Assembly: GCA_012521295.1 (NCBI GenBank)
Contig: JAAYMS010000107.1
Coordinates: forward strand, 35,641 to 99,640
Direction: 5' to 3'
Length of the DNA stretch: 64,000 nt
From: Bacillota bacterium
GTDB lineage: Bacteria; Bacillota; Limnochordia; Darwinibacteriales; Darwinibacteriaceae
The position numbers were made by a program, and so were the translations under genes. Positions within the stretch are counted from its first letter, which is position 1; every line of letters starts with the position of its first letter. Under the pieces are notes generated by a model. It ran no database searches. It was not told the origin of the DNA and was given only the letters and a program-made list of their open reading frames with translations. Below, piece after piece: positions 2,161 to 63,635 of the stretch.

Positions 2161-2170
2161 GAGGTGGACG

Positions 2171-7888: not shown

Positions 7889-9720
7889 GACATGGCGGGC
7901 CAAGGGGCGGCTTCGGGAAATTTGAGCGTGCCAAAGACTTTCGTGGGACAGCGCGGCGTTTATTGCAGTATCTCAGGCCGCATCGTCTGAGTCTAGCCTT
8001 TGTGATAGCGGCGGCTCTGCTGAGCACTGTGTTTAATATCTTCTCACCGCGCATTCTAGGACGTGCGACGACTCTGCTGTTTGAAGGGGCCATGTCCAAA
8101 ATGCAGAATGTGCCGGGAGCAGCGATTGACTTCGCAGCCATCGGCAGAACACTCGTTACTCTGGCTTTTCTATACGTCGCCAGCGCGTTGTTCACTTATG
8201 TACAGCAATACATCATGGCGGGGGTTGCCCAGCGCACAGTTTACGACCTGCGCCAAGCGATCAACCACAAACTAGCTAAACTGCCGCTGCGTCATTATGA
8301 CTCGAATCCCCACGGTGATCTGCTCAGCCGAGTGACGAATGATGTGGATATGGTTAGTCAAACACTGCAGCAGGGGCTCACACAGTTGGTGACCTCGGCG
8401 GTGACATTGATTGGTGTCATCATTATGATGCTGCGCATCAGTCCACTACTTACACTGATTACCATGCTCATGCTGCCGTTGAGTGCAGTCATCAGCGCAG
8501 TCGTAGTGTCGCGCTCGCAGGGTTACTTTGCTGGCCAACAGCGCTGGCTGGGAGAGTTGAATGGTCATGTGGAAGAAATGTACACAGGGCACACTGTGGT
8601 TAAGGCATACGGTTTAGAAGAAAAGGCGCTCGCTGAATTTGACCAAAAGAACGCGGAATTATACGAACACGGTTGGCGAGCCCAGTTCATCTCGGGAATC
8701 ATGATGCCTCTCATTGGTTTTGTGGGAAATCTAGGTTATGTGGCGATCAGTGTGATCGGAGGCATCTTTGCACTGCGGGGTCAGATCAAGGTGGGCGATA
8801 TTCAGGCCTTCATGCAGTATTCGCGGCAGTTCACAATGCCGATCACGCAAGCTGCAAACATTCTTAATATGATGCAGGCTTCAATCGCAGCCGCTGAAAG
8901 GGTCTTTGAGCTCCTTGATGCTGAAGAAGAGCCAGAAGATGCGGTGGACAGCGTCAAATTGAATGATCCAGAGGGGCGCGTGGAACTGAAAAACGTCAAC
9001 TTGGGATATAATCCTGGAAATCCCGTTCTGAGGAATGTAAATCTCACAGTCGAGCCAGGTCAAACGATAGCGATTGTGGGCCCAACTGGAGCGGGCAAGA
9101 CAACTCTAGTAAACCTGCTGATGCGGTTCTATGATGTGGACAGCGGGGAGATTACCATTGATGGAGTCAACATCGCCAAAATGAAGAGGGCCGACCTTCG
9201 GGCAGCGTTTGGCATGGTGCTCCAAGATGCTTGGCTGTTCCATGGTACGATTCGAGAAAACATCGCGTATGGCAAGCCTGGGGCAACCGAGGAGGAAATC
9301 GTGGCTGCAGCGAAGGCTGCCCACGCCGACCACTTCATCCGCACTCTGCCCGATGGATATGATACAATTCTGAGTGAGGATGCAGCTAACATTTCACAGG
9401 GGCAGCGCCAGCTGCTCACAATTGCGCGGGCAGTATTGGCCGATCCAACGATTTTGATTCTGGATGAGGCCACCAGTTCGGTAGATACGCGTACAGAACT
9501 GCTGATCCAGCAGGCTATGGCACGGCTGATGAAGGGGCGTACTAGTTTTGTGATCGCTCACCGTCTGTCTACCATTCAGGGCGCAGACTGCATTCTGGTG
9601 GTGCGAGACGGCGAGATCGTAGAACAGGGTACCCACGAAGAGCTCCTCGAAGCTGGTGGTTTCTATGCTGAGCTCTACTACAGTCAGTTTGCTGGCGAAA
9701 CCCGTTCTCGCGTAGGATGA
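7885..9720 (+). CDS. ABC transporter permease/ATP-binding protein (partner half-transporter)
   Basis: Walker A GPTGAGKTT, signature ISQGQRQLLTIARAV, Walker B LILDEATS. The start overlaps the previous stop. Likely a heterodimeric multidrug-type exporter. Confidence 0.85.
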   Translation: MRHGGPRGGFGKFERAKDFRGTARRLLQYLRPHRLSLAFVIAAALLSTVFNIFSPRILGRATTLLFEGAMSKMQNVPGAAIDFAAIGRTLVTLAFLYVASALFTYVQQYIMAGVAQRTVYDLRQAINHKLAKLPLRHYDSNPHGDLLSRVTNDVDMVSQTLQQGLTQLVTSAVTLIGVIIMMLRISPLLTLITMLMLPLSAVISAVVVSRSQGYFAGQQRWLGELNGHVEEMYTGHTVVKAYGLEEKALAEFDQKNAELYEHGWRAQFISGIMMPLIGFVGNLGYVAISVIGGIFALRGQIKVGDIQAFMQYSRQFTMPITQAANILNMMQASIAAAERVFELLDAEEEPEDAVDSVKLNDPEGRVELKNVNLGYNPGNPVLRNVNLTVEPGQTIAIVGPTGAGKTTLVNLLMRFYDVDSGEITIDGVNIAKMKRADLRAAFGMVLQDAWLFHGTIRENIAYGKPGATEEEIVAAAKAAHADHFIRTLPDGYDTILSEDAANISQGQRQLLTIARAVLADPTILILDEATSSVDTRTELLIQQAMARLMKGRTSFVIAHRLSTIQGADCILVVRDGEIVEQGTHEELLEAGGFYAELYYSQFAGETRSRVG

Positions 9721-20439: not shown

Positions 20440-20457
20440 GGTGAAAGGGTGCCATTG

Positions 20458-20937
20458 ATGAAGATTCCTACAAATCTGAAGCATAAACCAGTGATGGTGG
20501 TTGAGAATTACGAAAACGTCGATGGGAGACAGGCCTATTCATCGGACGCCAAGGGCCTATCACTCGGACTTGCTCAGTGGAATGAGCGGGGTAGAGTAGA
20601 TGTTTCTGCAAAAGTATGGCGGCACACCGGTGAAAAGTGGTCGCGTCAGTCGGAAGAACTTCCGCTGCATCGCGTGCTTGACTTAGCAATTCTGGTCAGC
20701 CGCGCTCTATATTATTTTCAAGACGCCTACCGCTATGAGAAGCTCTATGATGAGCAGAATCCAGTAGTGGATCGTGTCGGGCTGCAGGGCGATGCCATGA
20801 CTATTGAGATATGTACCGAAAACGAGAAGATTGTAGAAGACCTCCAGCTTTTCCAGGAAGCTCTCAGTAAAGATGGCGAACTAATTGGCGAGCGTTTGCG
20901 GGTTTTGGCTCGTATTCTGAAAGAGATGGGATATTAA
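20458..20937 (+). CDS. hypothetical protein
   Basis: ATG follows a GAAAGGGTG RBS. I recognise no family. It is divergent from zupT. Confidence 0.5.
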   Translation: MKIPTNLKHKPVMVVENYENVDGRQAYSSDAKGLSLGLAQWNERGRVDVSAKVWRHTGEKWSRQSEELPLHRVLDLAILVSRALYYFQDAYRYEKLYDEQNPVVDRVGLQGDAMTIEICTENEKIVEDLQLFQEALSKDGELIGERLRVLARILKEMGY

Positions 20938-47317: not shown

Positions 47318-48661
47318 CTAGTTAATGGGATAAGCGTGAAAAGAGGCGACCCGCCACCCAGTTGGTTCTGCAGCCAGTTCTAAATCGATGGCAACATCCG
47401 TTCGGGGCGAGTGTCTTACAAGGATCGTTGCCCGAAACTCTCTTGGATTAGTGACAATCACCTGCCAAGGTTCTTCTTTGTTGAGTCCCTGAAACAAACT
47501 GACTGCTATCGCGCGCTGCGCTGGATCAGGCAAACCCAGCAATTCTTCAATGACCTCACGGTCCACGGCAGCTGCCTCTTGAAGTTCTCTGACGTAACCC
47601 TTTATAGAATCAATCAAGCCCTGCGGTGCAGCAGGTTGATGCGGATGCATTGTAAATCTCTGCAGTTCCCACCCATCTGCTATCTTAATCCAAACCATGA
47701 AAGCATCGTAGAGTGGTTGCCCGCCGCTGATCATTATCGTGGTTAGGGTTCCGTCTCTCTCGGTAATCTCCAGGTTCGTAATCTGGCTCTCTAGCGGAAG
47801 CACTGCAGAGGGGATGTTCTTTAAGTAATCAACGAGTCCTTGTTTCCTTAGTTCTGCGCCTATATGGGCGGTAAGGAAATCCACGTTCCGGGCAGAGACT
47901 GCTTCATCCCACCGTACTATCAAGTTGCTTAGCTCCCCAGCCGGCCCATCGCTTCTGACTGCAAGCGAGATGGGTGGTGCAGGGGGTTCTGCGCTTGGAA
48001 TCGGTTCGGCAGCTGGGGGCTCTGGTATTGATTCGGCCTGTGCTGGTTCTACCTGCATTGGTTCTATTTGTGCCAGCTCTGTTTGGGCTGGTTCCGGGGA
48101 TGGGGCTTCTTCATCGGGGAACGGTGGCGGTTCTGCAGGCGCAATTGGTTCCTTAACGATTTGAACCTTGTTGATATCCAAATCGGACTGCGTCGATAAG
48201 ACCAAGACTGGGTACGAATCTTGTGGCTGATAAAGGTGCCAATCATCAGGATGCTGGATGAAGAATTGCGAGACTTCCACCGGTATGGAGAACTCAGGGA
48301 ACCAAAGGCTGTCGCGGCCTAGAGTAAGGGGATCATTTTGCAAGGCGAGAAAACCTTCGTAGGCAAGATGAAGTTCCCTTGCTGAACCGTACTCTCTTAA
48401 ACGGACTGTGACTACAGTTCCCAAAAAACCTCGGTCTATACTGTAATCCTCAATACCCTCGGTCCACAAGACTGTCACCTGAGCACCAGGGAACAGCCTC
48501 AGTGAAAACTGAGGGCCGGCCGGGTTTATCGTGACCTGCCCATCGACTCGTAGAAACCCGCTGTCTGGCATAATAAAAGCTTGGATTTGGGCATGGGCTA
48601 GGGTCGAGGCGCAGAGGAATGCAGCGCAGGCAACTAAAACCCCAAGCAACCGGTTATGCAT
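47318..48661 (-). CDS. secreted hypothetical protein with Pro/Glu/Ala-rich repeat linker
   Basis: Signal peptide MHNRLLGVLVACAAFLCASTLAHA. A central run of about 70 aa of EPAQ/EPxx repeats. No family recognised. Confidence 0.5.
   Translation of the reverse strand: MHNRLLGVLVACAAFLCASTLAHAQIQAFIMPDSGFLRVDGQVTINPAGPQFSLRLFPGAQVTVLWTEGIEDYSIDRGFLGTVVTVRLREYGSARELHLAYEGFLALQNDPLTLGRDSLWFPEFSIPVEVSQFFIQHPDDWHLYQPQDSYPVLVLSTQSDLDINKVQIVKEPIAPAEPPPFPDEEAPSPEPAQTELAQIEPMQVEPAQAESIPEPPAAEPIPSAEPPAPPISLAVRSDGPAGELSNLIVRWDEAVSARNVDFLTAHIGAELRKQGLVDYLKNIPSAVLPLESQITNLEITERDGTLTTIMISGGQPLYDAFMVWIKIADGWELQRFTMHPHQPAAPQGLIDSIKGYVRELQEAAAVDREVIEELLGLPDPAQRAIAVSLFQGLNKEEPWQVIVTNPREFRATILVRHSPRTDVAIDLELAAEPTGWRVASFHAYPIN
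47930..48170. repeat. low-complexity coding repeat (encodes the PEPAQ-type linker of the minus-strand gene)
   Basis: The DNA shows imperfect tandem ggttc/ggctc-rich units. The plus-strand ORFs at 47925-48164 and 47974-48156 are artefacts of this repeat. Confidence 0.6.
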
Positions 48662-49204: not shown

Positions 49205-49259
49205 TTGTATTTCCTTGATCGAATTGGTATAATAAACCGTGTGCACAAAAATGTGTACA
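49205..49259 (+). promoter_or_regulatory. sigma-A-type promoter (TTGTAT-17-TGgTATAAT) with two tandem palindromic boxes TGTGCACA / TGTGTACA at the predicted transcription start
   Basis: -35 at 49205-49210, extended -10 at 49225-49233. Boxes at 49240-49247 and 49252-49259. The ATG at 49280 follows AAGGGGG. Confidence 0.55.
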
Positions 49260-49279
49260 ACAGCTCAAGGGGGTACATC

Positions 49280-51925
49280 ATGCATCCATATATTGAATAT
49301 GTGAATCCACATCTAGGTAAGCGTTTGGTGCAGATTGGCCTTGATAAGCGGTTCGTCCGTGGAAACGGCAGTCGGCTGTTCGATGCCGATGGGGTAGAGT
49401 ATCTAGACTGTATCGCTGCCTATGGCGCTCTCCCCTTTGGATACAATCCGCCCCTGATTTGGGAAGCAGTCAATGCTGTACAGGCTAGTTCGGAGCCTAG
49501 TTTTATCCAACCATCCATGTTGGAAGCTGCTGGAAGGCTGGCGGAGGCTTTAATTAACGCGGCACCTGCGGGGATGGCTTACGTGACATTCGTAAACAGC
49601 GGTGCTGAGGCAGTCGAGGCGGCTGTGAAACTCTGCCGCGCCAAAACGGGTAAACTAGGAATTCTGTCTACAAAGAACAGTTTTCACGGCAAGACCTTGG
49701 GTGCATTATCCGCTACTGGGAACCCATCCTATCAGGATGCCTTTGGTGCACCACTGCCCGGGTTCGCTCACATTCCATATGGTGATGTGCAGGCTCTCGA
49801 AAGCTATCTTGCGGAGCATGCCCACGAGACGGCAGCGTTCATCATTGAGCCTATCCAAGGTGAAGGCGGCATTGTCGAGCCTCCCGAAGGCTATCTTAGG
49901 GCTGTACAAGAGATCTGCAGCTCCTATGGAGTATTGACTATTTTCGACGAGATTCAGACCGGCCTCGGCCGCACGGGTTATTTGTTTGCCTGTGAACGCG
50001 AAGGCGTTACTCCCGATGTGATGGTGCTTGCAAAAGCCTTGGGCGGTGGTTTGGTGCCTGTGGGAGCGGTCTTGTGTAAAGCGGAAGTATACACCGAGGA
50101 TTTCGGTCATAAACATTCGTCAACTTTCGCCGGAAACACCTTAGCCTGCCGCATCGGGCTGAGAGTGATGGAGATTCTTACAGAGAATGATCAGGCACTT
50201 GTGAAAGAAATCCGGAGAAAAGGCGAGCGTCTCAAGGGGCTTCTCCTTGAAGTCGCTGAGCGGTACCCACAGATCATCAGAGGAATTCGTGGCCAGGGCC
50301 TCATGCTGGGTGTAGACTTCGGACATGACAAGGATGTCTATCCCGACAGTCTGCTTGGCATCTTGGCGGAGCAAGAGTTCCTCACGCCTCTTATTGCTTC
50401 ATACCTGCTTAATACAGAGAAAGTGAGGGTGGCGCCTACTCTGAATGGGGCTAGTGTCATCAGGATCGAACCACCTTTGATCATCACCGATGACGAGATT
50501 GAACGGATAGCTAGTGCCGTAGAGAACGTTGCTAAGATGCTTGCGCAGCGCAATACTGCCAATTTCTTGGGGCATCTCATCGGCTATACTCCCGAGGAGC
50601 CTGCGGAGCCTGTAAGCGAGCCGGCTTCGCCAGCAGCCGAACCGATAGCGCAGGAAGACGATGGCCGTTTTGCCTTCTTGGTTCATCCAGTAGATTTGGC
50701 GAATTACAGTGATTTCGATGCTAGCCTGGCTGTGTTTTCCGAGGAACAGCTGGCAGACTTAAGCTCCCGCTGGAATGATCTAGTGGAACCCTTCGTGGTC
50801 GGTACCACTCGCATCGAAAGCAATACAGGAGAAACAGCCTATGGAGATTTTATCTGCCTGCCGCGAACGGCTGATGAGTTCTTAGCGATGGATCGGGATC
50901 AGGCGATTGCCGAAATTAGACAGGCGATCGAGCTCGCCAAAGAACGTGGCGCTCGCCTGGTTGGGCTGGGAGCCTATACTTCAGTGGTCACGATGGGAGG
51001 ACGCTCTCTCGTGCCCTATGTCGATGTCGCCTTGACGACAGGCAACAGCTATACAGTGGTATCAGGGATCGAAGCAGTAACTACGGCCGCTCAGAGCCTT
51101 GATGTGACACTGGAAACAAGTACTGCCGCCGTGTTGGGCGCAAGCGGTGCTATTGGCAAGGCGCTCTCGACTCTCCTTGCCGAAAGTGTACAGGAGCTGA
51201 TTCTCATCGGCAATCCGCGGAATGCGGGTAAGAGCGAGTTCCGTATGCGCAAGGTCGTCGTGCAAATCTTACAGCATCTCCGTCAATTGGCCGACAAGGG
51301 GCACGAGTTCGCAGCGGGTACCATCGGTGACTACGTCCGGAAACGCCAGGATCTACCGTCGGCAGATGCTGACTTGAGTGAATGGCTGGATTACGTCGAA
51401 ACTCTTCTTATGGAGGATGCTCCGTTCGTAATTACGACAGACGCAGCGGCACATCTACCTAAAGCAGATCTGATTGTAGCAGCAACCAGCAGTCCCGAAG
51501 CGCTGATAACTCCCGCTATGCTGAAGTGGGGGGCCGTGATCTGCGATCTATCTCGCCCGGCCAATGTCAGCCGGGAAGTCCTGCACGAAAGGCCTGATGT
51601 GCTGGTCATAGATGGCGGTGTTGTCGAAGTACCCAATCGCCCAGATCTGGGATGGAACTTCGGCTTTGAGCAGGGCCAAGCATACGCCTGCATGTCAGAG
51701 ACGATGATGCTGGCCTTGGAGAAACGCTATGAAAACGCAAGTCTGGGTGCAGACTTGAACATCGAGCACATCCAATACCTGCGAGGACTGGCTGATAAGC
51801 ACGGCTTTGCTCTGGCTGGCCTGCGCAGCTTCGATAGACCCTTAACATCCGAAGAACTTGAACGGGTGCGGAGACTACGGGCCAAAGGTGCAGATACTGA
51901 AGACAAAATAGCACAAAATGCATAA
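49280..51925 (+). CDS. bifunctional fusion: class-III PLP aminotransferase (N-terminal) + acyl-ACP-reductase (AAR)-like NAD(P)-binding reductase domain (C-terminal)
   Basis: Residues 1 to about 440 are ArgD/GabT-like (GNSFHGKT, EPIQGEGG, FDEIQTGLGRTG, PLP Lys in AKALGGG). A Pro/Glu/Ala linker follows. Residues from about 470 to the end resemble cyanobacterial AAR (as recalled from memory) block by block: GLGAYTSVV, TTGNSYT, GASGAIGKA Rossmann motif, DLIVAATSSP, IDGGVVEV, QAYACMSETMMLALE. No Cys is found at the position of the AAR catalytic Cys. Confidence 0.6.
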   Translation: MHPYIEYVNPHLGKRLVQIGLDKRFVRGNGSRLFDADGVEYLDCIAAYGALPFGYNPPLIWEAVNAVQASSEPSFIQPSMLEAAGRLAEALINAAPAGMAYVTFVNSGAEAVEAAVKLCRAKTGKLGILSTKNSFHGKTLGALSATGNPSYQDAFGAPLPGFAHIPYGDVQALESYLAEHAHETAAFIIEPIQGEGGIVEPPEGYLRAVQEICSSYGVLTIFDEIQTGLGRTGYLFACEREGVTPDVMVLAKALGGGLVPVGAVLCKAEVYTEDFGHKHSSTFAGNTLACRIGLRVMEILTENDQALVKEIRRKGERLKGLLLEVAERYPQIIRGIRGQGLMLGVDFGHDKDVYPDSLLGILAEQEFLTPLIASYLLNTEKVRVAPTLNGASVIRIEPPLIITDDEIERIASAVENVAKMLAQRNTANFLGHLIGYTPEEPAEPVSEPASPAAEPIAQEDDGRFAFLVHPVDLANYSDFDASLAVFSEEQLADLSSRWNDLVEPFVVGTTRIESNTGETAYGDFICLPRTADEFLAMDRDQAIAEIRQAIELAKERGARLVGLGAYTSVVTMGGRSLVPYVDVALTTGNSYTVVSGIEAVTTAAQSLDVTLETSTAAVLGASGAIGKALSTLLAESVQELILIGNPRNAGKSEFRMRKVVVQILQHLRQLADKGHEFAAGTIGDYVRKRQDLPSADADLSEWLDYVETLLMEDAPFVITTDAAAHLPKADLIVAATSSPEALITPAMLKWGAVICDLSRPANVSREVLHERPDVLVIDGGVVEVPNRPDLGWNFGFEQGQAYACMSETMMLALEKRYENASLGADLNIEHIQYLRGLADKHGFALAGLRSFDRPLTSEELERVRRLRAKGADTEDKIAQNA

Positions 51926-51981
51926 ACAATAACTCCTCCACATACGATTAGATGAGCATTTGTGTGGGGGGATCGGCCTTG

Positions 51982-52725
51982 ATGGGACAATGGCGCGTTG
52001 CAGTGGCAGGCGGCACCGGGAGAACGGGAAGAGAAATCGTTCGATACCTAAACGCCGAAGAAGGCATTGAGGTGGTTGGGGTAGTGGCTCGATCCCTTGC
52101 AGGCCAGTCCATGTCAGTGGTATTACCTGGACTAAAGCGCCATATTCCCATATATGGAGATCTTGCGGAGCTCTTAAGGATTGATCCCCCCCACGTCTTG
52201 GTCGATTTCACCACACCGCAGGCGGCTAAGCGTCACTTCTTCATGTGTATAGAACGGGGGATTAATCCCATTATTGGAACCACAGGGTTTACAGATGCGG
52301 ATATAGCAGAGTTTGCTGAGGCCTGCGCGGCATTCAAGATTGGGGCCGCGGTTATCCCTAATTTCTCCATTGGCGCACTGGCTCTCAGGCTTGCCGCACA
52401 AGTCGTAGCTGGTATGCTGGACGATGTGGCCGTGTTGGAAACTTACCCTCATTCGAAAAGAGATCTGCCTTCAGGTACTTCCCAGCGTTTGGCCGCGCTA
52501 CTGGCCACAGGCGGGCCTGACAACCCCAAAGCGGTACCGATTCACAGCGTCAGGCTGGACGGTGTGCTGCCCCAGCAGGAAGTGCGGTTTGGTGGGCAGG
52601 GTGAGATGGTTGCCATTTCTCACCTGGTCAGTGACCGGGCCTGTTTCGGCAGGGGAGTGGCGATGGCCGTTAAGAAGATAGCAAAATTCCCCACCCTGAT
52701 TCAGGACCTAGATTTCTTTATATAA
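51982..52725 (+). CDS. DapB-like reductase (4-hydroxy-tetrahydrodipicolinate reductase family, divergent)
   Basis: N-terminal VAVAGGTGRTGREI, GTTGF and PSGTS blocks. The catalytic region reads ETYPHSKRDLPSGT, whereas the canonical DapB motif as I recall it is EAHHRHKVDAPSGT. ATG at 51982 follows GGGGGG. Confidence 0.6.
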   Translation: MGQWRVAVAGGTGRTGREIVRYLNAEEGIEVVGVVARSLAGQSMSVVLPGLKRHIPIYGDLAELLRIDPPHVLVDFTTPQAAKRHFFMCIERGINPIIGTTGFTDADIAEFAEACAAFKIGAAVIPNFSIGALALRLAAQVVAGMLDDVAVLETYPHSKRDLPSGTSQRLAALLATGGPDNPKAVPIHSVRLDGVLPQQEVRFGGQGEMVAISHLVSDRACFGRGVAMAVKKIAKFPTLIQDLDFFI

Positions 52726-52843
52726 CCGGGAAAGTCCCCGGTTTTTTGCTTTACAGGGAAAGGCAGGAACTTAGTGTAACTGCGGAGAAGTAGCACTCTC
52801 GACTCGGTTTCCAGTATCGGGTTATATAGAGGAGGACTAGAAG

Positions 52844-54109
52844 TTGAAGCTTGCATTGCATGGTGGCGAACCCGTTCGGACACGCCCCTGGGTTTCGAAA
52901 TTTATCGGCGGTGAAGAGCTGGGCCAGGAGGAGCGCGAGAGGGTACTGCGCGTCCTGGAAAAGAAGCGCATTTTCAGGTATCTCCCTGAAGGGTTGGACG
53001 AATCAGAAACGGCTCAACTGGAGAAGGAATATGCTCGCTTCGTGGGTACTCGCTATGCTTTGGCAGTCAATTCTGGCACATCGGCTCTAATCTGTGCGCT
53101 GGTTGCAGCTGGAATTGGCCCAGGAGATGAGGTTCTGATACCCGCTTATACGTGGGTGGCTACGGCAGGGGCCGTCGTGTCGATCGGAGCTGTACCAGTA
53201 CTCTGCGAAATAGACGAATCCTTGACCATTGATCCAGAAGATATGGAAAAGAGAATCACGCCTTATACCAAGGCTGTTATTGTGGTGCACATGCGCGGCA
53301 TGTCTTGTGACATGGACCGCATCATGGCAGTGGCACGGGCACACGATTTAAGGGTAATTGAGGATGTTGCACAGGCCAATGGAGGAAGCTATAAGGGTAG
53401 ACGCCTCGGAAGTTTCGGTGACGTAGGCTGCTTTAGCCTGCAGCAATCGAAGGTGATTACTACTGGCGAAGGCGGTATGGTTGTCACTGATTCGGAGGAG
53501 ATATGGCAGCGGGCGGTGATATATCACGACGGTGCCATGTATCAATTCCGCTTCACCGAACGTAAGGTACCGGCCTTTGCTGGTCAGAATTACCGCCTAA
53601 CCGAGCTGCAGGCAGCCCTGTCTTTGGGGCAGATTGAAAAAATGCCTGAGCTGATTAAGGCAACGCGGGCTGTAAAAAGAAGAGCTCTTGAGGTACTTGC
53701 AGGCCAGACTGGCATTTACTTTGCTCCGGCGTTCGGCAGTGAGCGGGATCTTGGTATCAGCTTGGTTTTCTACACTGAGACAGCTGAGCAGGCCGAATTC
53801 TTGGAAAAGGCTATTTCGGCTGAGGGCATCCCAGCACAGCGTATTTACAATCCGGAGCTGAACGATCAACATGTCTATGTCAACTGGGAGTTCTTAATGA
53901 ACAAACGCGATCCTTGGGGTGGAAGTTTCCCGTGGGATCAGCCTTTCTACAAGGGAAGTGTTGATTACAACGCCGACTCTTGTCCAAGGACTCTCGATAT
54001 CTTGAGCAGGGCAGTCCAGATTCGCCTCAATCATTTGATCACTGACGAAGACCTAGCTGACCTGAAGCAAGCAGTTGCCAAGACGGTTTCGGCAATGCCC
54101 ACATCTTAA
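52844..54109 (+). CDS. DegT/DnrJ/EryC1/StrS family PLP aminotransferase
   Basis: Motifs NSGTSAL, PAYTWVA and SFSLQQSKVITTGEGG (PLP Lys). TTG start 7 nt after AGAGGAGG. Confidence 0.8.
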   Translation: MKLALHGGEPVRTRPWVSKFIGGEELGQEERERVLRVLEKKRIFRYLPEGLDESETAQLEKEYARFVGTRYALAVNSGTSALICALVAAGIGPGDEVLIPAYTWVATAGAVVSIGAVPVLCEIDESLTIDPEDMEKRITPYTKAVIVVHMRGMSCDMDRIMAVARAHDLRVIEDVAQANGGSYKGRRLGSFGDVGCFSLQQSKVITTGEGGMVVTDSEEIWQRAVIYHDGAMYQFRFTERKVPAFAGQNYRLTELQAALSLGQIEKMPELIKATRAVKRRALEVLAGQTGIYFAPAFGSERDLGISLVFYTETAEQAEFLEKAISAEGIPAQRIYNPELNDQHVYVNWEFLMNKRDPWGGSFPWDQPFYKGSVDYNADSCPRTLDILSRAVQIRLNHLITDEDLADLKQAVAKTVSAMPTS

Positions 54110-54176
54110 GGCAGGATGTGGGGTTTGTCACAGGCGCTTTTTGCCTGTTTTGATTGTTGTAGGAAGGGGTATAGAA

Positions 54177-55781
54177 ATGCTGTTTGACTCGCTTTATTAT
54201 CCGTATCCTTCTCGGCGGATGGTGACCTATTCTAATCGCGGCATGGTGGCAACTTCGCAGGCTCTGGCAGCCCAAGCAGGATTGGAGATTCTGAAAAAAG
54301 GTGGGAATGCAGTTGATGCTGCCATCGCCACTGCAGCAGCTCTGACGGTGGTGGAACCCACTTCAAATGGTCTGGGTAGTGATGCATTCGCGATAGTATA
54401 CAGCGGTGGGCAACTTCACGGCTTAAACTCCAGCGGGCCTGCCCCGTCAAGCCTAACCGCCGACAAAGTACGCGCTAAGGGCCATGACGAGATGCCCGCC
54501 TTGGGGTGGTTCCCGGTTACCGTACCCGGTGCAGTAGGCGCCTGGGCGGCACTTTGGCGGAAGTTTGGCTCGCTCTCTTTCGCTGAACTACTAGAACCAG
54601 CCATCTCATATGCAGATGAGGGTTACCCTGTCTCGCCAGTGCTTGCTGAGGGATGGGAAGCATCTTACCGCCGCTATTCTAAGGAAAGCGATCAGCTCTT
54701 TGCCGAGTGGTTTAGAGTATTTGCGCCTCACGGAAGAGCACCGCGGTGCGGCGAAGTATGGCGTTCGCCTGACCATGCTAGAACGCTAAGGCTGATCGCC
54801 GAGTCAGAGGGCGAGGCCTTTTATCGTGGAGAACTAGCTGAAATAATCAGCCGCTACGCAGAAGAAACAGGCGGCTTCATTCGCAGCGCCGATCTGGCTC
54901 GTTTTGAACCACAGTGGGTCGAGCCGCTGTCGGTACGCTATCACGGTTATGATGTCTGGGAACTGCCTCCAAACGGCCAGGGGCTCGTGGCTCTCATCGC
55001 TCTAGGCATCTTGGATGCTTGGGAGTTCGAGAGCAAGGAGGATGTGGACACATACCACAAGCAGATCGAAGCGTTGAAACAGGCCATGACTGTGGCTGGT
55101 GAAGTGATTACTGACCCTGACCATATGCGCCTTGATCCAAAGGTTCTGCTCAGTCCGGATTATCTGGCTGCGCTCCGCAGCCGAATTGGTGAAACCGCAG
55201 GTGAACCCGTCGCCATTGTACCCGAAGATCATGGCACAGTATACTTGGCCGCAGCTGACCAGTATGGCAACATGATTTCATTCATCCAGAGCAACTACAT
55301 GGGCTTCGGTTCGGGCATCGTAGTACCAGACACAGGAATTGCGCTCCAGAACCGCGGGAAAGGCTTTTCGCTTGATCCGGAAAGAGTTAACTATCTTGAA
55401 CCGGGTAAGCGGAGTTACCATACAATTATTCCAGGTTTCTTGACTAGAGACGGCAAGGCTATCGGGCCCTTTGGCGTGATGGGCGGATACATGCAGCCTC
55501 AGGGGCACCTCCAGGTGATGATGAATACGATCGATTTTGGCCTCAATCCTCAGGCCGCTCTTGATGCACCGCGCTGGCAGTGGATGAGGGACAACAGCGT
55601 GGAGCTTGAACAGAGTGTGCCTGAACACATCAAGGCAGCTCTTGTACGCCGAGGGCACAAAGTGACTATTCCTGTAAGCAGTGTTGGGTTCGGGCGAGGC
55701 CAGATCATCTGGCGAGATGATCAAGGTGTTTTGGCAGGTGGAACAGAACCTCGCGCCGATGGGGCCGTGGCTGCTTGGTAG
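54177..55781 (+). CDS. ggt: gamma-glutamyltranspeptidase
   Basis: GGT family motifs (GGNAVDAAIA, catalytic Thr region PGKRSYHT(I)IP). ATG at 54177. The upstream extension to 54075 is rejected. Confidence 0.85.
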   Translation: MLFDSLYYPYPSRRMVTYSNRGMVATSQALAAQAGLEILKKGGNAVDAAIATAAALTVVEPTSNGLGSDAFAIVYSGGQLHGLNSSGPAPSSLTADKVRAKGHDEMPALGWFPVTVPGAVGAWAALWRKFGSLSFAELLEPAISYADEGYPVSPVLAEGWEASYRRYSKESDQLFAEWFRVFAPHGRAPRCGEVWRSPDHARTLRLIAESEGEAFYRGELAEIISRYAEETGGFIRSADLARFEPQWVEPLSVRYHGYDVWELPPNGQGLVALIALGILDAWEFESKEDVDTYHKQIEALKQAMTVAGEVITDPDHMRLDPKVLLSPDYLAALRSRIGETAGEPVAIVPEDHGTVYLAAADQYGNMISFIQSNYMGFGSGIVVPDTGIALQNRGKGFSLDPERVNYLEPGKRSYHTIIPGFLTRDGKAIGPFGVMGGYMQPQGHLQVMMNTIDFGLNPQAALDAPRWQWMRDNSVELEQSVPEHIKAALVRRGHKVTIPVSSVGFGRGQIIWRDDQGVLAGGTEPRADGAVAAW

Positions 55782-55796
55782 AGGAGAGGGTTAGCA

Positions 55797-56597
55797 ATGC
55801 GGTTCTGGAAGTATCACGGGATCGGCAATGATTTTATCCTGGTAGAAGACTTTGAAGGCAGATTGCTCGGCGAAGCCCCCCGCATCGCCACTCAAGCCTG
55901 CCACCGGAACTTCGGTATCGGCGGTGATGGCTTAGTGCTGATAACTCAGAACGACGGTATGTATACTATGCGCATCTTCAACTCCGATGGCTCCGAAGCC
56001 GAGATGTGCGGCAATGCCATCCGCTGCGTTGCCCATCACCTCATTGATAAAGGGTACGCAGTCGGTGAGACGGTCATCATAAACACCATCAGTGGTGCAA
56101 AAAAGGTGTATCGAGAGCGCGACCAGTATGCTGTCGACATGGGCGAGCCACGATTTACTGCTGCAGAACAGCTTCCAGATGGAATCCAAGAAGTAGAGGC
56201 CTTAGGAGGCCAGTGGAAGATTCACCCTGTCTCGATGGGCAATCCCCACGGAGTAGTATTTGTAGATGAGCTCGCGGCTCTTCCCTTTGAGCACTTAGGG
56301 CCCCTGCTGGAGCGGCATCCTATTTGGCCAGCGATGGCCAATATTGAGTTTGTCCAGGTTGAAAACAGCAGCTCTCTAAGGGTTAAGGTTTGGGAGCGGG
56401 GAGTAGGGCCGACGCTCGCGTGTGGTACAGGTGCCTGCGCTGCGGCGGTCTGGTCGGCTCGCTTGGGCACAACCGGGCGCCGCGTTGCTGTCCATCTTCC
56501 GGGTGGGAGTCTAGAAATCCGCTGGGAAGATGATAATCACGTTTGGATGATTGGCCCTGCTGTTGAGGTCTTTACTGGTTCATATCATGGGAAATGA
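55797..56597 (+). CDS. dapF: diaminopimelate epimerase
   Basis: GNDFILV N-terminus and the two catalytic Cys motifs (CGNAIRC, ACGTGACA). Confidence 0.85.
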   Translation: MRFWKYHGIGNDFILVEDFEGRLLGEAPRIATQACHRNFGIGGDGLVLITQNDGMYTMRIFNSDGSEAEMCGNAIRCVAHHLIDKGYAVGETVIINTISGAKKVYRERDQYAVDMGEPRFTAAEQLPDGIQEVEALGGQWKIHPVSMGNPHGVVFVDELAALPFEHLGPLLERHPIWPAMANIEFVQVENSSSLRVKVWERGVGPTLACGTGACAAAVWSARLGTTGRRVAVHLPGGSLEIRWEDDNHVWMIGPAVEVFTGSYHGK

Positions 56598-57465: not shown

Positions 57466-58467
57466 CTACATTAAGTCTTTCAGGTCGCTTGTGGCTACTG
57501 CTTTAACTAAGTCCACGCACGCCTCTACGTCTCTGATATCAACCATCTCTGAAGCGGTGTGTACGTAGCGGCAGGGGATAGAAATAGTGCCAGCCAAGAT
57601 ACCATCTCTTGTTAAATGGATAGCACCCGCATCTGTTCCACCTCTTTCAAGGACCTCGAACTGATGGGGGATGTTGTTATCTTCGGCGAGCTTCGTGAGA
57701 AAGGCTTTAACCTTCGGATTAGTGATCATCGAAGAGTCTTTGACCTTGATAGCAGCTCCTTTACCAAGTGAGACCTCCATGCGCGGGCCTTCGGGTACGT
57801 CACCAGTGAGGGTCACGTCTAAAGCAATACCAAGGTCCGGATTGATGGTGTAGGCAGACGTACGCGCCCCCCTCAGTCCAACCTCTTCTTGGGTGGAGAA
57901 TACGAAGTACAGAGTATTGGGTGTATCCTGAAGCTGTTTAATTGCCTCCACCAGGATCGCACAACCGATGCGGTCATCCATACTCTTCGCCACTAGGCGG
58001 TTTCCGAGATCGGTGAATTCACGATGGATGATGCCAAACTCCCCAACCTTGACCTTGGCTTCGGCTTCTTCTTGTGATTCGGCGCCGATGTCAACATAGA
58101 GCTTATCGAGATTGAGATCCTTTAGATCGCCTTTTTCCTTGTAAATCACACCGATAGTACCATTGGAAAAGCGGACTCTGTTGCCAATCAACGTTTCTGG
58201 AGCTAATCCACCCACATTAGAGAACCGCAAGAAACCTTTTTCATCGATGTGGGTCACGATGATTCCAATCTCATCGGCATGCGCAGAAAACATGATGCGT
58301 TTGCCTTCAGGCGCTGTACCTCGTTTTACGGCAATGAGGTTGCCCATAACATCCGTGGAGATTTCGTCGACATGATCCTTAATCATATCAGCAATGACTT
58401 CGCGAACCTGGTCTTCATATCCTGATGGGCCAAAGGCCTCGGTTAGGGTGCGAATGATCTCTTTCAT
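57466..58467 (-). CDS. M42 family aminopeptidase (TET/FrvX-like) paralog 1
   Basis: M42 metal-ligand motifs (HADEIG, DDR, EEVGLRGA). Confidence 0.8.
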   Translation of the reverse strand: MKEIIRTLTEAFGPSGYEDQVREVIADMIKDHVDEISTDVMGNLIAVKRGTAPEGKRIMFSAHADEIGIIVTHIDEKGFLRFSNVGGLAPETLIGNRVRFSNGTIGVIYKEKGDLKDLNLDKLYVDIGAESQEEAEAKVKVGEFGIIHREFTDLGNRLVAKSMDDRIGCAILVEAIKQLQDTPNTLYFVFSTQEEVGLRGARTSAYTINPDLGIALDVTLTGDVPEGPRMEVSLGKGAAIKVKDSSMITNPKVKAFLTKLAEDNNIPHQFEVLERGGTDAGAIHLTRDGILAGTISIPCRYVHTASEMVDIRDVEACVDLVKAVATSDLKDLM

Positions 58468-59489
58468 TAGTTGCCCTCCCTTTCTTGGAGATCTTGGAGA
58501 TATACACTAGTCAACCGGAATGCGGCTTCGTAGTCCTTCTTACTCATTACAGAAGCGGCAGAATGGATGTAGCGGCAGGGAACGGCAATGACAGCAGCCT
58601 TGGTTCCGCCCGCTGTTAGCTGAATCTGGCCCGCGTCTGTTCCACCAGTGTTAGTGCGGCGGATCTGATAAGGGATGTTGTGTTCTTCTGCTAGTTCAAT
58701 CAGCCTCCGCACAAGAGGTGGGTGGGTGATGACTGTTCGATCCATGATGGTGATCGCAGGCCCTTTGCCCACTGATGTGGCGTGCTTGTGTGGATCAGAA
58801 CCAGGGACGTCCGAAGCGGTAGTCCCTTCAAGGACAATGGCTACATCCGGCTGGATTTGATAGGCCGCCACACCGGCACCTCTTAAGCCAACCTCTTCCT
58901 GAACTGTAAATACGCCGTAAACAGGAATGTCATAATTCTGCTTTAAGAGCTCGATGAGTAGAGCGCATCCGACCCTATCGTCCAGCGCCTTTGCTTTGAT
59001 CTTATCTTGACCGAACTCTTCGAACTTAGTGGCGAAATAAGCGCAATCCCCTAGATTGACGACTTTTTCCGCTTCTTCTTGGCTCTTGGCACCGATATCA
59101 ATTGCGAGTTCGTCGATGCTTAGAGGGCGCTGCCTTTCTTCTGGCCTCTGCAGGTGAATGGGCTTGCTGCCGATGACGCCAGGAACCTTCTTTTCTCCCA
59201 CCAAGACGGTCTTGGCCACCAACACTCTCGGATCGATGCCGCCAATTGGCCTGAACCGGAGTAGACCGTTCTTCTCAATTCCAAGAATCATTAAAGCAAC
59301 TTCATCCATGTGAGCTGCCAACATCACCTTCGGCCCCGGGGCGGAAGGGTTCTTAACCGCAATTAAGTTGCCTAAAGCGTCTGTACGGATTTCATCTACG
59401 TAGCCTTCGATTTCAGAGCGGATCAGAGCACGAACTTCTCCCTCTTGACCTGGAGCACCGCAAGCTTCAGTCAGTTTTCTTAAAAGCAC
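58467..59489 (-). CDS. M42 family aminopeptidase paralog 2
   Basis: M42 motifs (HMDEV, DDRVG, EEVGLRGA). Directly abuts paralog 1. Confidence 0.8.
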   Translation of the reverse strand: MLLRKLTEACGAPGQEGEVRALIRSEIEGYVDEIRTDALGNLIAVKNPSAPGPKVMLAAHMDEVALMILGIEKNGLLRFRPIGGIDPRVLVAKTVLVGEKKVPGVIGSKPIHLQRPEERQRPLSIDELAIDIGAKSQEEAEKVVNLGDCAYFATKFEEFGQDKIKAKALDDRVGCALLIELLKQNYDIPVYGVFTVQEEVGLRGAGVAAYQIQPDVAIVLEGTTASDVPGSDPHKHATSVGKGPAITIMDRTVITHPPLVRRLIELAEEHNIPYQIRRTNTGGTDAGQIQLTAGGTKAAVIAVPCRYIHSAASVMSKKDYEAAFRLTSVYLQDLQEREGN

Positions 59490-60541
59490 TTCAATCCCTC
59501 CACAAATTCGTTGTCCAATCCGGCAATGAAGAAGGCCATCAGACGCCCAGTGAGCTTGACGTCGTTGTAATCAAGTGTTTCGATGGGCGTGTGCATGTAC
59601 CGTAGTGGGATAGACAGGAGAATTGTTGGAATTCCTGCCTGAGTAACCTGAATCGCGTAAGCATCGGTCCCTCCTGGATAGGGAGATGGGTCAAGGGAAT
59701 ATGGGATTTTCCATTCCTTGGCCACTTCTACCATACGCTTATGTAGGGTAGGGTGCACATGGGGGCCGAGGCCGATTGCGGGCCCGCCTCCCAGCTTTAT
59801 GGTTTGGAATTCCTGCAGGCCGGGCTGGTCTCCGAAGCCCACGTCAATTGCAATCCCCACATCAGGCACGATTCCGTAGGTGCTTGTAATCGCCCCGCGC
59901 AGGCCAACTTCCTCTTGAACCGTGGCGACGGCATATACTTCAGCAGAGAAATTGAGGTCATCGAGTGCCTTGAGGCATTCAAGCATGGCTGCCACACCGG
60001 CTCGGTCGTCAAATGCCTTACCGGCCATGAATGAGCCTTGGAGATTCCAGCTGGTTTGGTTGATCGTCGCTAGATCACCAACTGCCACTTTGCCTTCCAC
60101 TTCTTCGGCACTGTCAAATCCGATATCAATAAATAGGTCCTCCAGTTTCACTGCCTGCCGCTGCTCATCAGGACTCTGCACATGCGGCGGTTTAGCCCCG
60201 ATCACTCCACGGTAAGTCTCTTTGCCATGGACTGTCACTTCCTGGCCCAATAGGACTCGTTGATCGAAGCCTCCAATTGTGCTGAAACGGAGGAATCCTT
60301 CCTTTTCAACCTTAGTAATAATTAAACCGATTTCGTCCATATGAGCTGCCAACATGACCCGGGGTACCTTTTGGTCAGATTGAGCCTTGCCTTTCTTAAG
60401 CATAATGAGATTCCCCAGCGTATCGCGGCGAAACTCATCAACCCAGGGGCATGCTTCCTGAATCTGGTCTGCAATCTGGTCTTCATACCCTGAAACTCCA
60501 GAATTGGATGCGATATCCTGGAACAACTGCTTGATGTCCAT
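59480..60541 (-). CDS. M42 family aminopeptidase paralog 3
   Basis: M42 motifs (HMDEIG, DDRAG, EEVGLRGA). ATG at 60541 follows GGAGGG. The longer ORF to 60589 is rejected. Confidence 0.75.
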   Translation of the reverse strand: MDIKQLFQDIASNSGVSGYEDQIADQIQEACPWVDEFRRDTLGNLIMLKKGKAQSDQKVPRVMLAAHMDEIGLIITKVEKEGFLRFSTIGGFDQRVLLGQEVTVHGKETYRGVIGAKPPHVQSPDEQRQAVKLEDLFIDIGFDSAEEVEGKVAVGDLATINQTSWNLQGSFMAGKAFDDRAGVAAMLECLKALDDLNFSAEVYAVATVQEEVGLRGAITSTYGIVPDVGIAIDVGFGDQPGLQEFQTIKLGGGPAIGLGPHVHPTLHKRMVEVAKEWKIPYSLDPSPYPGGTDAYAIQVTQAGIPTILLSIPLRYMHTPIETLDYNDVKLTGRLMAFFIAGLDNEFVEGLKCF

Positions 60542-60629
60542 CAGCGTCCCTCCTTGTGCGTAATTTGTACTATTATTTCTTTTGAACAAAGGAAAACCCT
60601 CCCACCAACACGAAATAGAGAGGATATTG

Positions 60630-60878: not shown

Positions 60879-62270
60879 TTGCTGTCGGAAAAGTTAATCG
60901 CGGAGGTTCTGCATGCTGCTCTATCCACAGGCGGTGACTTCGCAGAGATCTTTGCAGAGGATACTTACAATACATCTATCAACATGATCAACGGCATAGT
61001 AGAAGACGGCATCCAAGGAAGAGATCACGGAGTCGGTATTCGGATCTTCCAAGGCGTCCGCAGTGTCTATGCCTATACAAATGATCTAACTCCTGCTAAC
61101 CTGATCCGGGTAGCCAAAGAAGCTGCGGCCGCACTGCCAGGGGCCAGCTCGGTTCAGACTCTGGTTCTTAACCGGTGTGCTGTTGATAACATGCATCTTA
61201 TCAAGATTCGGCCTAGTGATGTACCACAGGCTCGCAAAGTGGAAGTAATGCGGGAGGCTCATACTGGTGCGCAAGGATATGATCAGCAGATCAGCCAAGT
61301 AACTGTGCGCTATCTCGATACTGAGCAGAATATTTTGATTGCCAACTCAGAGGGCCTACTCACGGGAGATAGAAGAGTACGCACTCGCTTGGCAGTTCAG
61401 GCCATCGCCACAAAAGGGAATGAAAAGCAGTCTGGGTTCTATGGCCCAGGCCGTCACATGGGATTTGAGATGTTTGACCTGATAAATCCGCGTGAAGCAG
61501 GGGCGCGGGCAGCGAAGATCGCTGTTACTATGATCAATGCAGACTATGCTCCGAGCGGGCGTTACCCGGTTGTGATTCACAATGAGTTTGGTGGCGTTAT
61601 TTTCCACGAGGCCTGCGGCCACGGTCTCGAAGCGACCAGTGTGGCAAAGGGTACATCAGTTTTTGCCGGACGCATTGGAGAGAAGGTGGCCAGTGACGTC
61701 GTTACCGCTGTAGACGACGGCAGCATTCCCAATGCATGGGGTTCGCAAAACATTGACGATGAAGGAACACCTACAAGACGCAATGTCTTGATTGAAAACG
61801 GAATCCTTAAGGGCTATATGGTTGATAAACTCAATGGCCGCCGAATGGGAATGGAACCAACTGGCAATAGCAGGCGCCAGTCGTATAAATTCGCCCCGAC
61901 ATCGCGCATGACCAATACTTTCATTGAGGCAGGCGAGTCTACGGTAGAAGAGATCATCAAGAACACCGAGAAGGGCCTCTTTGCCAAGAGCATGGGCGGC
62001 GGTTCCGTCAATCCCGCCACCGGAGAGTTCAACTTTGCGGTCATGGAGGGCTATCTGATTGAGAATGGAGAGATTGTCAAACCTGTACGGGGAGCAACGT
62101 TGATCGGAAAAGGCCATGAAATCTTGATGAAGATCGATATGGTGGCCAATAACTTAGCTCGCGGTCAGGGGATGTGCGGTTCTATCAGCGGCTCAATTCC
62201 TGCTGACGTAGGTCAACCCACCATTCGCGTTTCTGAGATCACGGTTGGTGGCCGGGAGGGAGGCAACTAG
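60879..62270 (+). CDS. tldD: TldD family metalloprotease
   Basis: TldD/PmbA fold with an HExxxH-type motif (FHEACGHGLE). TTG start after AAGGGGG. Confidence 0.8.
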   Translation: MLSEKLIAEVLHAALSTGGDFAEIFAEDTYNTSINMINGIVEDGIQGRDHGVGIRIFQGVRSVYAYTNDLTPANLIRVAKEAAAALPGASSVQTLVLNRCAVDNMHLIKIRPSDVPQARKVEVMREAHTGAQGYDQQISQVTVRYLDTEQNILIANSEGLLTGDRRVRTRLAVQAIATKGNEKQSGFYGPGRHMGFEMFDLINPREAGARAAKIAVTMINADYAPSGRYPVVIHNEFGGVIFHEACGHGLEATSVAKGTSVFAGRIGEKVASDVVTAVDDGSIPNAWGSQNIDDEGTPTRRNVLIENGILKGYMVDKLNGRRMGMEPTGNSRRQSYKFAPTSRMTNTFIEAGESTVEEIIKNTEKGLFAKSMGGGSVNPATGEFNFAVMEGYLIENGEIVKPVRGATLIGKGHEILMKIDMVANNLARGQGMCGSISGSIPADVGQPTIRVSEITVGGREGGN

Positions 62271-63635
62271 ATGGATATCCGGAAGTTTAAGGAGCTTGTT
62301 TTTGCTGCAGGCAGATCCGCAGGTCTAGAAGAGATGGAGATCTATGCTGCACGCACTAAAGAGTTGGAAGTGCGTGTCTACAAATCAGAAGTTGATAACT
62401 ACAACTTAAGCGACGAAGGCGGTGTAGGGCTGCGTGCCCGTTACGCCGGGAAAATCGGATATGCATATACTGAGGCTCTTGATGATCAGTCAGTAGAGTA
62501 CTTGGTCAATGCTGTCAAAGCCAACGCACAGGTAATCGATAGTGAAGATGAAATTGAGTTCTTCGCTGGTTCACTGAGCTATCCCGAGGTGGAGACGTAC
62601 TATCCTGAACTTGATCAGGTTCCCGCTGAAGAGTACATTAATGCGGCCCTCGAGTTTGAGCGCACCGCTCAATCTGCGGACAGCAGAGTCGACTCGGTGA
62701 ACTGGGCACTGACTGGATACTTCAGTTCTGACGTGTTTATTGCGAACACAGAGGGTTTAGAGCAGAGCTTCAGGCAGAACCTTGCTTATGGGTTTGTGTC
62801 AGCTGTTATTAGGGAAAACGGTCAGGTCAAGACGGGCAGCAAGTCGAAGTCGATCTACGATTGGGCACAGTTCGACCCTGCGGCCATGGCTCGTGAGGCT
62901 GTTGAAGAGGGTCTTTCGCTGCTTAACGCTGAGACTGTTCCATCTGGCAATTACCGCATCATCCTGCGCCGGGATGCAGCTCGGTCAATTCTTGCGACTT
63001 TCTCAGGAGTGTTTTCAGCTGAAGCGGTCCAAAAAGGGCTTTCTCTCTTGGGTGACAAACTAGGTACTCAGATTGCAGCCGAGACAGTCTCTTTGGTCGA
63101 CAACCCCTTCGTGCCTCATGCAGGTGGTTCTCGTCCTTTTGATGGGGAAGGAGTGGCTGTTCAAAAGACCGATGTGATTGCCAAGGGGCAGCTGAACAGT
63201 TTCCTGCATAATTTGAAAACTGCCAAGAAACAAGGTGTCCAGTCAACTGGAAATGCCAGCCGGCCATCTTTCAAATCAACGGTCGGGATTGCACCGACTA
63301 ACTTCTATATAGAGCCGGGCGAAGATTCGTATAACGCACTCTTAACCCAACTAGGTGATGGGTTAGTGATTATCGATGTGCAGGGGCTGCATTCGGGGGC
63401 TAACCCTGTTTCTGGAGATTTTTCACTAGGCGCCTATGGATACAGGGTTGAGAATGGTAAGGTGGTTGGAGCAGTAGACCAGATCACGATTTCAGGCAAC
63501 TTTTTCACGCTTTTGAGGGACGTGGAGAAGGTCGGATCTGATCTTGAGTTCGGCCTTCCCGGCGGTGCTGGCAATGTAGGAAGCCCATCCCTTCTGATTC
63601 GTGGACTGTCGGTGGCTGGAAGGAGGGGGAAGTAA
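62271..63635 (+). CDS. pmbA: TldE/PmbA family protein (TldD partner)
   Basis: Paralogous TldD/PmbA fold lacking the HExxxH motif. Its start abuts the tldD stop. Confidence 0.8.
   Translation: MDIRKFKELVFAAGRSAGLEEMEIYAARTKELEVRVYKSEVDNYNLSDEGGVGLRARYAGKIGYAYTEALDDQSVEYLVNAVKANAQVIDSEDEIEFFAGSLSYPEVETYYPELDQVPAEEYINAALEFERTAQSADSRVDSVNWALTGYFSSDVFIANTEGLEQSFRQNLAYGFVSAVIRENGQVKTGSKSKSIYDWAQFDPAAMAREAVEEGLSLLNAETVPSGNYRIILRRDAARSILATFSGVFSAEAVQKGLSLLGDKLGTQIAAETVSLVDNPFVPHAGGSRPFDGEGVAVQKTDVIAKGQLNSFLHNLKTAKKQGVQSTGNASRPSFKSTVGIAPTNFYIEPGEDSYNALLTQLGDGLVIIDVQGLHSGANPVSGDFSLGAYGYRVENGKVVGAVDQITISGNFFTLLRDVEKVGSDLEFGLPGGAGNVGSPSLLIRGLSVAGRRGK

Follow-up and report, generated by a model that had tools for sequence, protein, structure and literature searches.

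We analysed a stretch of 64,000 nucleotides (nt), referred to here as the window, from the forward strand of contig JAAYMS010000107.1 of a Bacillota bacterium (assembly GCA_012521295.1, positions 35,641 to 99,640), and identified at 51982–52725 a gene for a homolog of DapB, the 4-hydroxy-tetrahydrodipicolinate (HTPA) reductase of the lysine pathway. The protein has the DapB fold, lacks two histidines of the DapB active site (His159 and His160 in E. coli numbering) and is encoded directly behind a gene for a transaminase/thioester-reductase (TA-TR) fusion. We tentatively read it as a neofunctionalised NAD(P)H-dependent DapB-fold reductase acting on the product of the TA-TR fusion, a reading that we place just short of an even chance. 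In its favour, an otherwise invariant residue and a carboxylate ligand are lost, the branch of the protein is long, its gene is strictly paired with TA-TR and there is no linkage to lysine genes. Taken as an HTPA reductase in the strict sense, the protein departs from the family at His159, the defining residue, and at His160, a weaker one, whereas the other sequence and fold features tested are all present.

The DapB fold and the catalytic motif

51982–52725, forward strand: DapB-like reductase of 247 amino acids (aa), a member of the 'Y-P' clade, identified from the open reading frame (ORF), Pfam, TIGR00036, alignments, AlphaFold, Foldseek and the ratio of nonsynonymous to synonymous substitutions (dN/dS).
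51966–51972, forward strand: Shine-Dalgarno-like run GGGGGGA, which precedes the ATG at 51982 by 9 nt, read from the sequence.

The mechanically called ORF extends from 51952 to 52725 on the forward strand. As its homologs all begin with MGQ, which corresponds to the ATG at 51982, and as GGGGGGA lies upstream of that codon, the real gene is likely 51982–52725 with the stop codon included, matching the coordinates given in the first-pass annotation of this DNA.

Against Pfam, the protein matched DapB_N (2.7e-25) and DapB_C (8.8e-19). Its AlphaFold model, for which a 58-sequence alignment was the input, reached a pLDDT of 94.8 and a pTM of 0.90, and the best 50 Foldseek matches among solved structures were all DapB/HTPA reductases (TM 0.7–0.89). 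The two domains of DapB were recognised, namely an N-terminal Rossmann domain with GxxGxxG, at which G10, G13 and G16 are invariant, and a C-terminal substrate/tetramerisation domain. The first-pass annotation had called the protein a DapB-fold homolog and had named three fold markers; all of them are present (G10-G-T-G13-R-T-G16, G99-T-T-G-F103 and P163-S-G-T-S167), and Pfam, the model and Foldseek bear out the assignment.

The catalytic motif was aligned by HMMER to solved DapBs and by MAFFT, with an E. coli DapB reference sequence that was identical to PDB 1ARZ at 273/273 positions. In E. coli, the motif reads E157-A-H159-H160-R161-H162-K163-V-D-A-P-S-G-T170 and the published DapB consensus is 157-E(L/A)HHXXKXDAPSGTA-171 (PMC11489326), so the canonical motif given in the first-pass annotation was correct. 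The aligned stretch of the window protein is E153-T-Y155-P156-H157-S158-K159-R-D161-L-P163-S-G-T166. Hence H159 is replaced by Y155, H160 by P156, R161 by H157 and H162 by S158, while K163 (K159), D165 (D161) and PSGT are kept. It had been stated earlier that two of the three His residues are lost, both adjacent ones included. The adjacent pair is indeed gone, but none of the three E. coli His positions carries a His: the only His of the stretch (H157) occupies the position of R161, at which most relatives have Arg, and the position of H162 is unconserved among canonical DapBs.

In DapB, His159 is the proposed general acid, acting via a water, His160 is a ligand of the C2 carboxylate and the ring nitrogen is in contact with Lys163; mutants of His159 or Lys163 show a dramatic loss of activity (PMC11489326). 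In the Paenisporosarcina enzyme, the counterpart of His160 is His155, which contacts the dipicolinate carboxylate, K158A is inactive, and the remaining dipicolinate contacts are Thr165, Pro125/Asn126, Thr100 and Arg236 (PMC5962572). The window protein has Tyr155 in place of the general acid and Pro156 in place of the carboxylate ligand, a position at which some members of the clade have Leu or Ser. The second difference is the weaker one, as the His160 position is His in 42 of 48 canonical DapBs and G or S in the other 6 (H-G in Paenibacillus and relatives). On the other hand, K159, D161 and the P163–T166 loop were found in place, together with P126/N127, T166, T101 and R219, which correspond to the conserved dipicolinate contacts. 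The alignment that the first-pass annotation had proposed as a check thus leaves its point on the catalytic residues standing, with both His159 and His160 absent and Lys163 and PSGT present.

Distribution and conservation of the clade

The window protein belongs to a small group of 245–248 aa proteins that share 43–85% identity and come from uncultured Limnochordia, mostly of anaerobic digesters ('Peptococcaceae bacterium 1109', 'Limnochordia bacterium' and 'Bacillota bacterium' metagenome-assembled genomes, MAGs). Accessions of the Y-P proteins are HHT72785.1, NLM55510.1, NLM25039.1, MGI6147753.1 and MGI6642183.1, and the MAGs carrying the gene include LDJB01, CALKAR01, JAAYMI01, JAAYMV01, JAAYLQ01 and SKHL01. 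The assembly FZPS01 (GCA_900198705.1) holds at least 4 different clade members and is a metagenome assembly, not a single genome.

Tyr at the position of His159 is invariant in an alignment of 10 clade sequences and was found in every further translated clade locus (L012–L014 and L063–L070), while the residues after it vary (E[ST]YP[HR]SK, DMY[PL]P[HQ]K and DYYSDQK). His159 itself was present in 48/48 sampled canonical DapBs and in 140 of 143 non-clade cluster representatives. When a clade profile was run by HMMER against 1.84 billion cluster representatives, about 9,900 DapB-family proteins were returned, only 4 of which scored high (401–222 bits) above a canonical plateau of less than 200 bits. 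Among the best 149 matches, a residue other than His at this position was found only in clade members, in P0360 and P0370 (Phe) and in P0455 (Ala). One relative on a 924-bp contig (P0358) has H-P at the motif. The clade has further specific changes (E150A, R213S, RLPG to RLDG, and AHQ to PQQ or AYQ). In a neighbor-joining tree, its 12 sequences were monophyletic in 200/200 bootstraps, which places the protein in the separate clade that the first-pass annotation had suggested looking for. The clade lies on a long branch, with a mean distance of 1.39 to canonical DapBs as compared to 0.98 among the canonical DapBs. The replacement of His159 by Tyr is a character of the clade, beyond noise.

P0360, P0370 and P0455 have the DapB fold and keep the Lys and PSGT with His159 gone. 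All three belong to a different lineage from the clade. P0360 and P0370 carry G-G instead of the conserved D-R, and P0360 is encoded between HSP20 and GGDEF genes (L050) with no TA-TR neighbor. They look like a second, unrelated group of degenerate DapB-like proteins.

Pairwise dN/dS of the DapB-like gene within the clade ranged from 0.08 to 0.13, with dS near saturation, which indicates a functional and constrained gene with no decay. Perhaps catalysis was lost and the protein serves a structural, regulatory or chaperone role, for example as a subunit that partners the TA-TR enzyme; it has lost the proposed general acid and is always encoded beside the same large enzyme. The plant DapB-like protein CRR1, which is without reductase activity, acts in assembly of the NDH (NADH dehydrogenase-like) complex. 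However, GxxGxxG, Lys159, PSGT, Asn127 and Arg219 are invariant across the clade, which with a dN/dS of about 0.1 is the pattern of an active site in use, and we regard a non-catalytic role as highly improbable.

Pairing with a transaminase/thioester-reductase gene

49205–51925, forward strand: TA-TR fusion, with an N-terminal class-III pyridoxal phosphate transaminase and a C-terminal thioester reductase resembling acyl-ACP (acyl carrier protein) reductase.
52724–52753, forward strand: intrinsic-terminator-like hairpin (7 bp, 5 of them G-C) with a T-run, overlapping the stop codon of the DapB-like gene.

Read from the TTG at 49205, the TA-TR ORF encodes 906 aa. Its homologs have 876–877 aa, so that translation probably begins at the ATG of M26, at about 49280. 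The N-terminal half matched Aminotran_3 (5.4e-94), and the C-terminal 418 aa matched the N-terminal domain of PigE (PDB 4PPM) and the cyanobacterial acyl-ACP reductase (6JZQ), with which the GxxGxxG and the catalytic Cys align (yaCMsEt / gCMaEt). The best NCBIfam match was the PigE model, at 575.9 bits and under its equivalog cut-off of 850. The protein has the parts of a TamH/PigE-type fusion, a transaminase and a reductase domain with nucleotide motif and catalytic Cys. PtTamH, in which the transaminase is followed by the thioester reductase, turns fatty acyl thioesters bound to ACP into aldehydes and these into amines (PMC9594044); PigE carries out the same steps with its domains in reverse, and the PigE product cyclises to a dihydropyrrole, which is a cyclic imine.

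The DapB-like gene starts 56 nt 3′ of the TA-TR ORF. In related loci, which were read to ±10 kb, TA-TR lies immediately upstream in all clade loci that have sufficient flank (the window, L001–L004, L006–L014 and L063–L070), with gaps of 56–156 nt, and the pairing holds even in the distant lineages (43–49% identity) where all other neighbors differ. This is consistent with the link that the first-pass annotation had drawn to the aminotransferase-reductase fusion. An equivalent hairpin with altered stem and loop letters was found in L009, L011 and L001, and no such hairpin was evident in L004, L006 and L012–L014, which are distant members. With the conserved pairing and the terminator after the DapB-like stop codon, the two genes look like a discrete bicistronic unit. 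Across the window, no Rfam riboswitch or leader reached its gathering threshold, and around the operon no credible match came up at E ≤ 1; no lysine riboswitch was found.

No pyrrole-alkaloid cluster or dedicated carrier partner was found in the window or the related loci. Among distant TA-TR homologs, none of which has a DapB-like gene beside it, no common third partner was detected, some having AMP-ligase or PP-binding partners; in Paraburkholderia, TA and TR are split into separate genes that have carrier and AMP-ligase partners and no DapB-like gene. A 533-aa paralog of the TR domain, 61% identical to that of the window, is encoded beside LuxS at 8001–9602 of locus L045 (FZPS01000134.1). 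There, no DapB-like gene was found and about 1 kb upstream, where the transaminase half would lie, is without a called gene; this may be a second copy of TA-TR that is degraded or mis-called.

Co-transcription of the pair might also be only regulatory, the DapB-like protein being an active NAD(P)-dependent oxidoreductase with a substrate unrelated to TA-TR, for example one that oxidises dihydrodipicolinate (DHDP) to dipicolinate for spores or that reduces another heterocyclic or keto-acid metabolite. This would fit the conserved cofactor site, the largely conserved pocket, the TA-TR fusions found elsewhere with no DapB-like partner and the lack of further conserved pathway genes around the pair. 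However, strict adjacency with a short gap in all clade loci is most simply explained by a shared pathway, and no evidence ties the protein to sporulation genes. We thus consider an unrelated substrate quite improbable.

Proposed function of the pair

If the DapB-like protein acts on the product of its neighbor, the TR domain would reduce an ACP- or coenzyme A-bound acyl-thioester to an aldehyde and the TA domain would turn this aldehyde into a primary amine. With NAD(P)H, the DapB-like protein would then reduce the compound, which may have cyclised, at a C=N, at a C=C-C=N or perhaps at a C=O. Lys159 (E. coli Lys163) would polarise the substrate as in DapB, and Tyr155 would stand in for His159 as the proton donor, giving a Y-x-x-x-K arrangement by analogy with the Tyr/Lys pairs of other reductases. 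The loss of His160, the C2-carboxylate ligand, suggests a substrate with one carboxylate fewer than DHDP, and the retention of PSGT, Asn, Thr, Arg and Lys suggests that the substrate has at least one carboxylate and a DHDP-like ring, as in a carboxylated N-heterocycle. The residue roles, the substrate class and the coupling to the fusion product are all proposed here from sequence. Canonical DapB is no simple imine reductase, as its hydride goes to C4 of a conjugated imine.

In its fullest form, the proposal is that the pair is a three-activity module in the primary metabolism of digester Limnochordia, at which a Tyr-x-x-x-Lys DapB-fold enzyme would reduce a cyclic imine, enamine or carbonyl other than HTPA. 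We consider this rather unlikely. In the literature, we found neither the coupling of a TamH/PigE-type enzyme to a DapB-fold protein nor a DapB with Tyr for His159 described, and nothing specific on a DapB paralog as an imine reductase or on lysine biosynthesis in Limnochordia.

A number of observations weigh against a reductase that acts on the fusion product. TA-TR fusions with no DapB-like neighbor occur in Limnochordales and other Firmicutes, so the fusion has no need of the DapB-like protein. No ACP, acyl-activating or keto-acid-forming enzyme is conserved beside the pair in the window or the related loci, and thus the substrate cannot be named. The pocket is still DHDP-like, with 6 of the 7 described dipicolinate contacts retained (Lys163, PSGT, Asn127, Thr101 and Arg219), and apparently ordinary DapBs, such as the H-G enzymes of Paenibacillus, also do without His160. 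The protein passes the NCBI dapB equivalog TIGR00036 (151.8 bits against a cut-off of 122, a small margin), and public records name the clade proteins DapB (4-hydroxy-tetrahydrodipicolinate reductase). Finally, DapF is encoded close by in the near relatives.

A genuine DapB as the alternative and the lysine pathway

These same family features, that is the equivalog score, the fold with 6 of 7 substrate contacts and the dispensable His160, would be expected of a genuine HTPA reductase, possibly the sole one of the lineage. Such a protein would be a fast-evolving ortholog at which Tyr155 and Lys159 replace the general acid His159 and the adjacency to TA-TR is accidental, and we regard it as a realistic possibility, if a doubtful one. 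The DapF gene lies 3 genes downstream in the window and in L001, L009, L011 and L066, and none was found in the distant clade loci; DapF nearby implies that the cell needs tetrahydrodipicolinate. A profile search of all six frames of the window for a second dapB returned only this gene, and no other DapB homolog was found in any of the fetched flanks. In addition, the purifying selection on the gene equals that on neighboring housekeeping genes.

Against a genuine DapB stand the otherwise essentially invariant His159, mutants of which reportedly lose activity dramatically (PMC11489326), and the TA-TR pairing, which is kept at 43–49% identity while every other neighbor changes. The long branch and the variation at residues 156–158 (YPHS, YPRS, YPPH, YLPH and YSDQ) also speak against it. 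Furthermore, no lysC, asd, dapA or lysA was found in the 64-kb window, and the gene has no linkage to lysC, asd and dapA, unlike its nearest canonical (H-H) homolog, P0011 (41% identity), whose gene adjoins that of an aspartate kinase. On these points we prefer, tentatively, the neofunctionalised reductase.

An abundant canonical DapB, P0192, was considered as the dapB of the clade organisms and rejected, since its synteny (qcr-ypjB-dapB-mgsA-bshBA) is of the Bacillus type and unrelated. One paper describes many amino-acid auxotrophies for one digester Limnochordia.

Other features of the window

The genes 3′ of the pair encode a DegT-family aminotransferase, a gamma-glutamyltranspeptidase (GGT), DapF and a glycerophosphodiesterase, and are collinear in the closer relatives only. 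We examined whether DegT, GGT and DapF are part of the same unit as the pair and rejected this, as a terminator lies between and the three genes are absent from the distant clade loci. The DegT/DnrJ/EryC1-family aminotransferase, GGT and DapF (52844–56597) form an unusual combination; the aminotransferase scored far under all sugar-aminotransferase equivalog cut-offs, and a MatE efflux gene is inserted among the downstream genes in L001, L011 and L066. Before the DegT gene, the stretch 52745–52843 holds a second predicted hairpin and the motifs GGCAGGAA and GCGGAGAA, which are kept in L009, L011 and L001. This conserved stretch, which had no Rfam match, may be a leader or a regulatory element. 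At 54075–54200, the GGT ORF opens at a TTG and shares its first 35 nt with the end of the DegT gene, homologs align only from residue 23–31 on, depending on the locus, and a terminator-like hairpin lies near the GGT start at 54130–54148; the true GGT start is probably further downstream than the listed TTG.

On the reverse strand, 47318–48661 encodes a 447-aa protein with an N-terminal signal-like segment, a Pro/Ala/Glu-rich linker and no Pfam match, which recurs at 30–84% identity beside a GNAT gene in related loci. Three tandem paralogs of about 330–370 aa are encoded on the reverse strand at 57466–60589, and the L002 ortholog of the first is annotated as Peptidase_M42. Together with the TldD/PmbA pair at 60879–63635 and the hut genes at 35–4071, they point to a lifestyle of peptide and amino-acid degradation. 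The ORF at 20449–20937 showed a very strong match to DUF6530 (283.6 bits) over its full length. The remaining window is ordinary chromosome, with hut genes, tRNA synthetases, pentose-phosphate enzymes, ABC transporters and peptidases.

Significance

Automatic pipelines name the clade '4-hydroxy-tetrahydrodipicolinate reductase', and metabolic reconstructions of biogas-reactor Limnochordia assign the dapB step to the clade protein. Should it be a neofunctionalised paralog, these reconstructions are wrong at an essential step of cell-wall and lysine synthesis, and the protein would be a new reductase of the DapB fold, which might be of use for reducing imines or enamines when coupled to an enzyme that turns fatty acids into amines. 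Were the three-activity module true, it would be the first DapB-fold enzyme with a substrate outside the lysine pathway to be coupled to a TamH-like enzyme. If, on the other hand, the protein is the sole DapB of its hosts, then the 'essential' general-acid His can be replaced by Tyr, which bears on the DapB mechanism and on the design of DapB-directed inhibitors. Either way, it is a clean and conserved anomaly in abundant, uncultured digester bacteria, with a bearing on pathway annotation or on the DapB mechanism.

Comparison with known systems

The window protein shares its two-domain fold, at a TM of 0.8–0.89, with DapB (EC 1.17.1.8; TIGR00036; PF01113 and PF05173; PDB 1ARZ, 5Z2E and 1C3V). 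The motifs GxxGxxG, GTTGF, (A/I)PNF, Lys163, Asp165, PSGT and an Arg near the C terminus are common to both, and its short-loop architecture resembles the DapBs of the M. tuberculosis and T. maritima type. It differs from them in that the clade has Tyr for His159 and Pro, Leu or Ser for His160, and in that its gene follows a TA-TR fusion and does not accompany lysC, asd or dapA.

The upstream TA-TR gene has the same domain order as PtTamH of the tambjamine YP1 pathway. However, its locus is in the housekeeping chromosome of an anaerobic Firmicute, with no bipyrrole genes, ACP or acyl-AMP ligase nearby, in contrast to PtTamH and PigE. In the known TamH and PigE pathways, moreover, an oxidase (PigB) or a condensation comes next instead of a DapB-fold reductase.

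The reduction of cyclic imines with NAD(P)H, which the first-pass annotation had proposed for the DapB-like protein, is the chemistry of ProC (on pyrroline-5-carboxylate), DpkA (on piperideine-2-carboxylate and pyrroline-2-carboxylate) and the imine reductases (IREDs), some of which use a Tyr proton donor. These enzymes have no sequence or fold relation to the window protein, whose significant structural matches are all DapBs, so that the idea of an imine reductase is one of functional analogy only. For the proposed chemistry itself, TamH and PigE, the latter of the MAP (2-methyl-3-n-amyl-pyrrole) pathway of prodigiosin, offer precedents, as the steps of PigE are like those of TamH and the PigE product cyclises to an imine.

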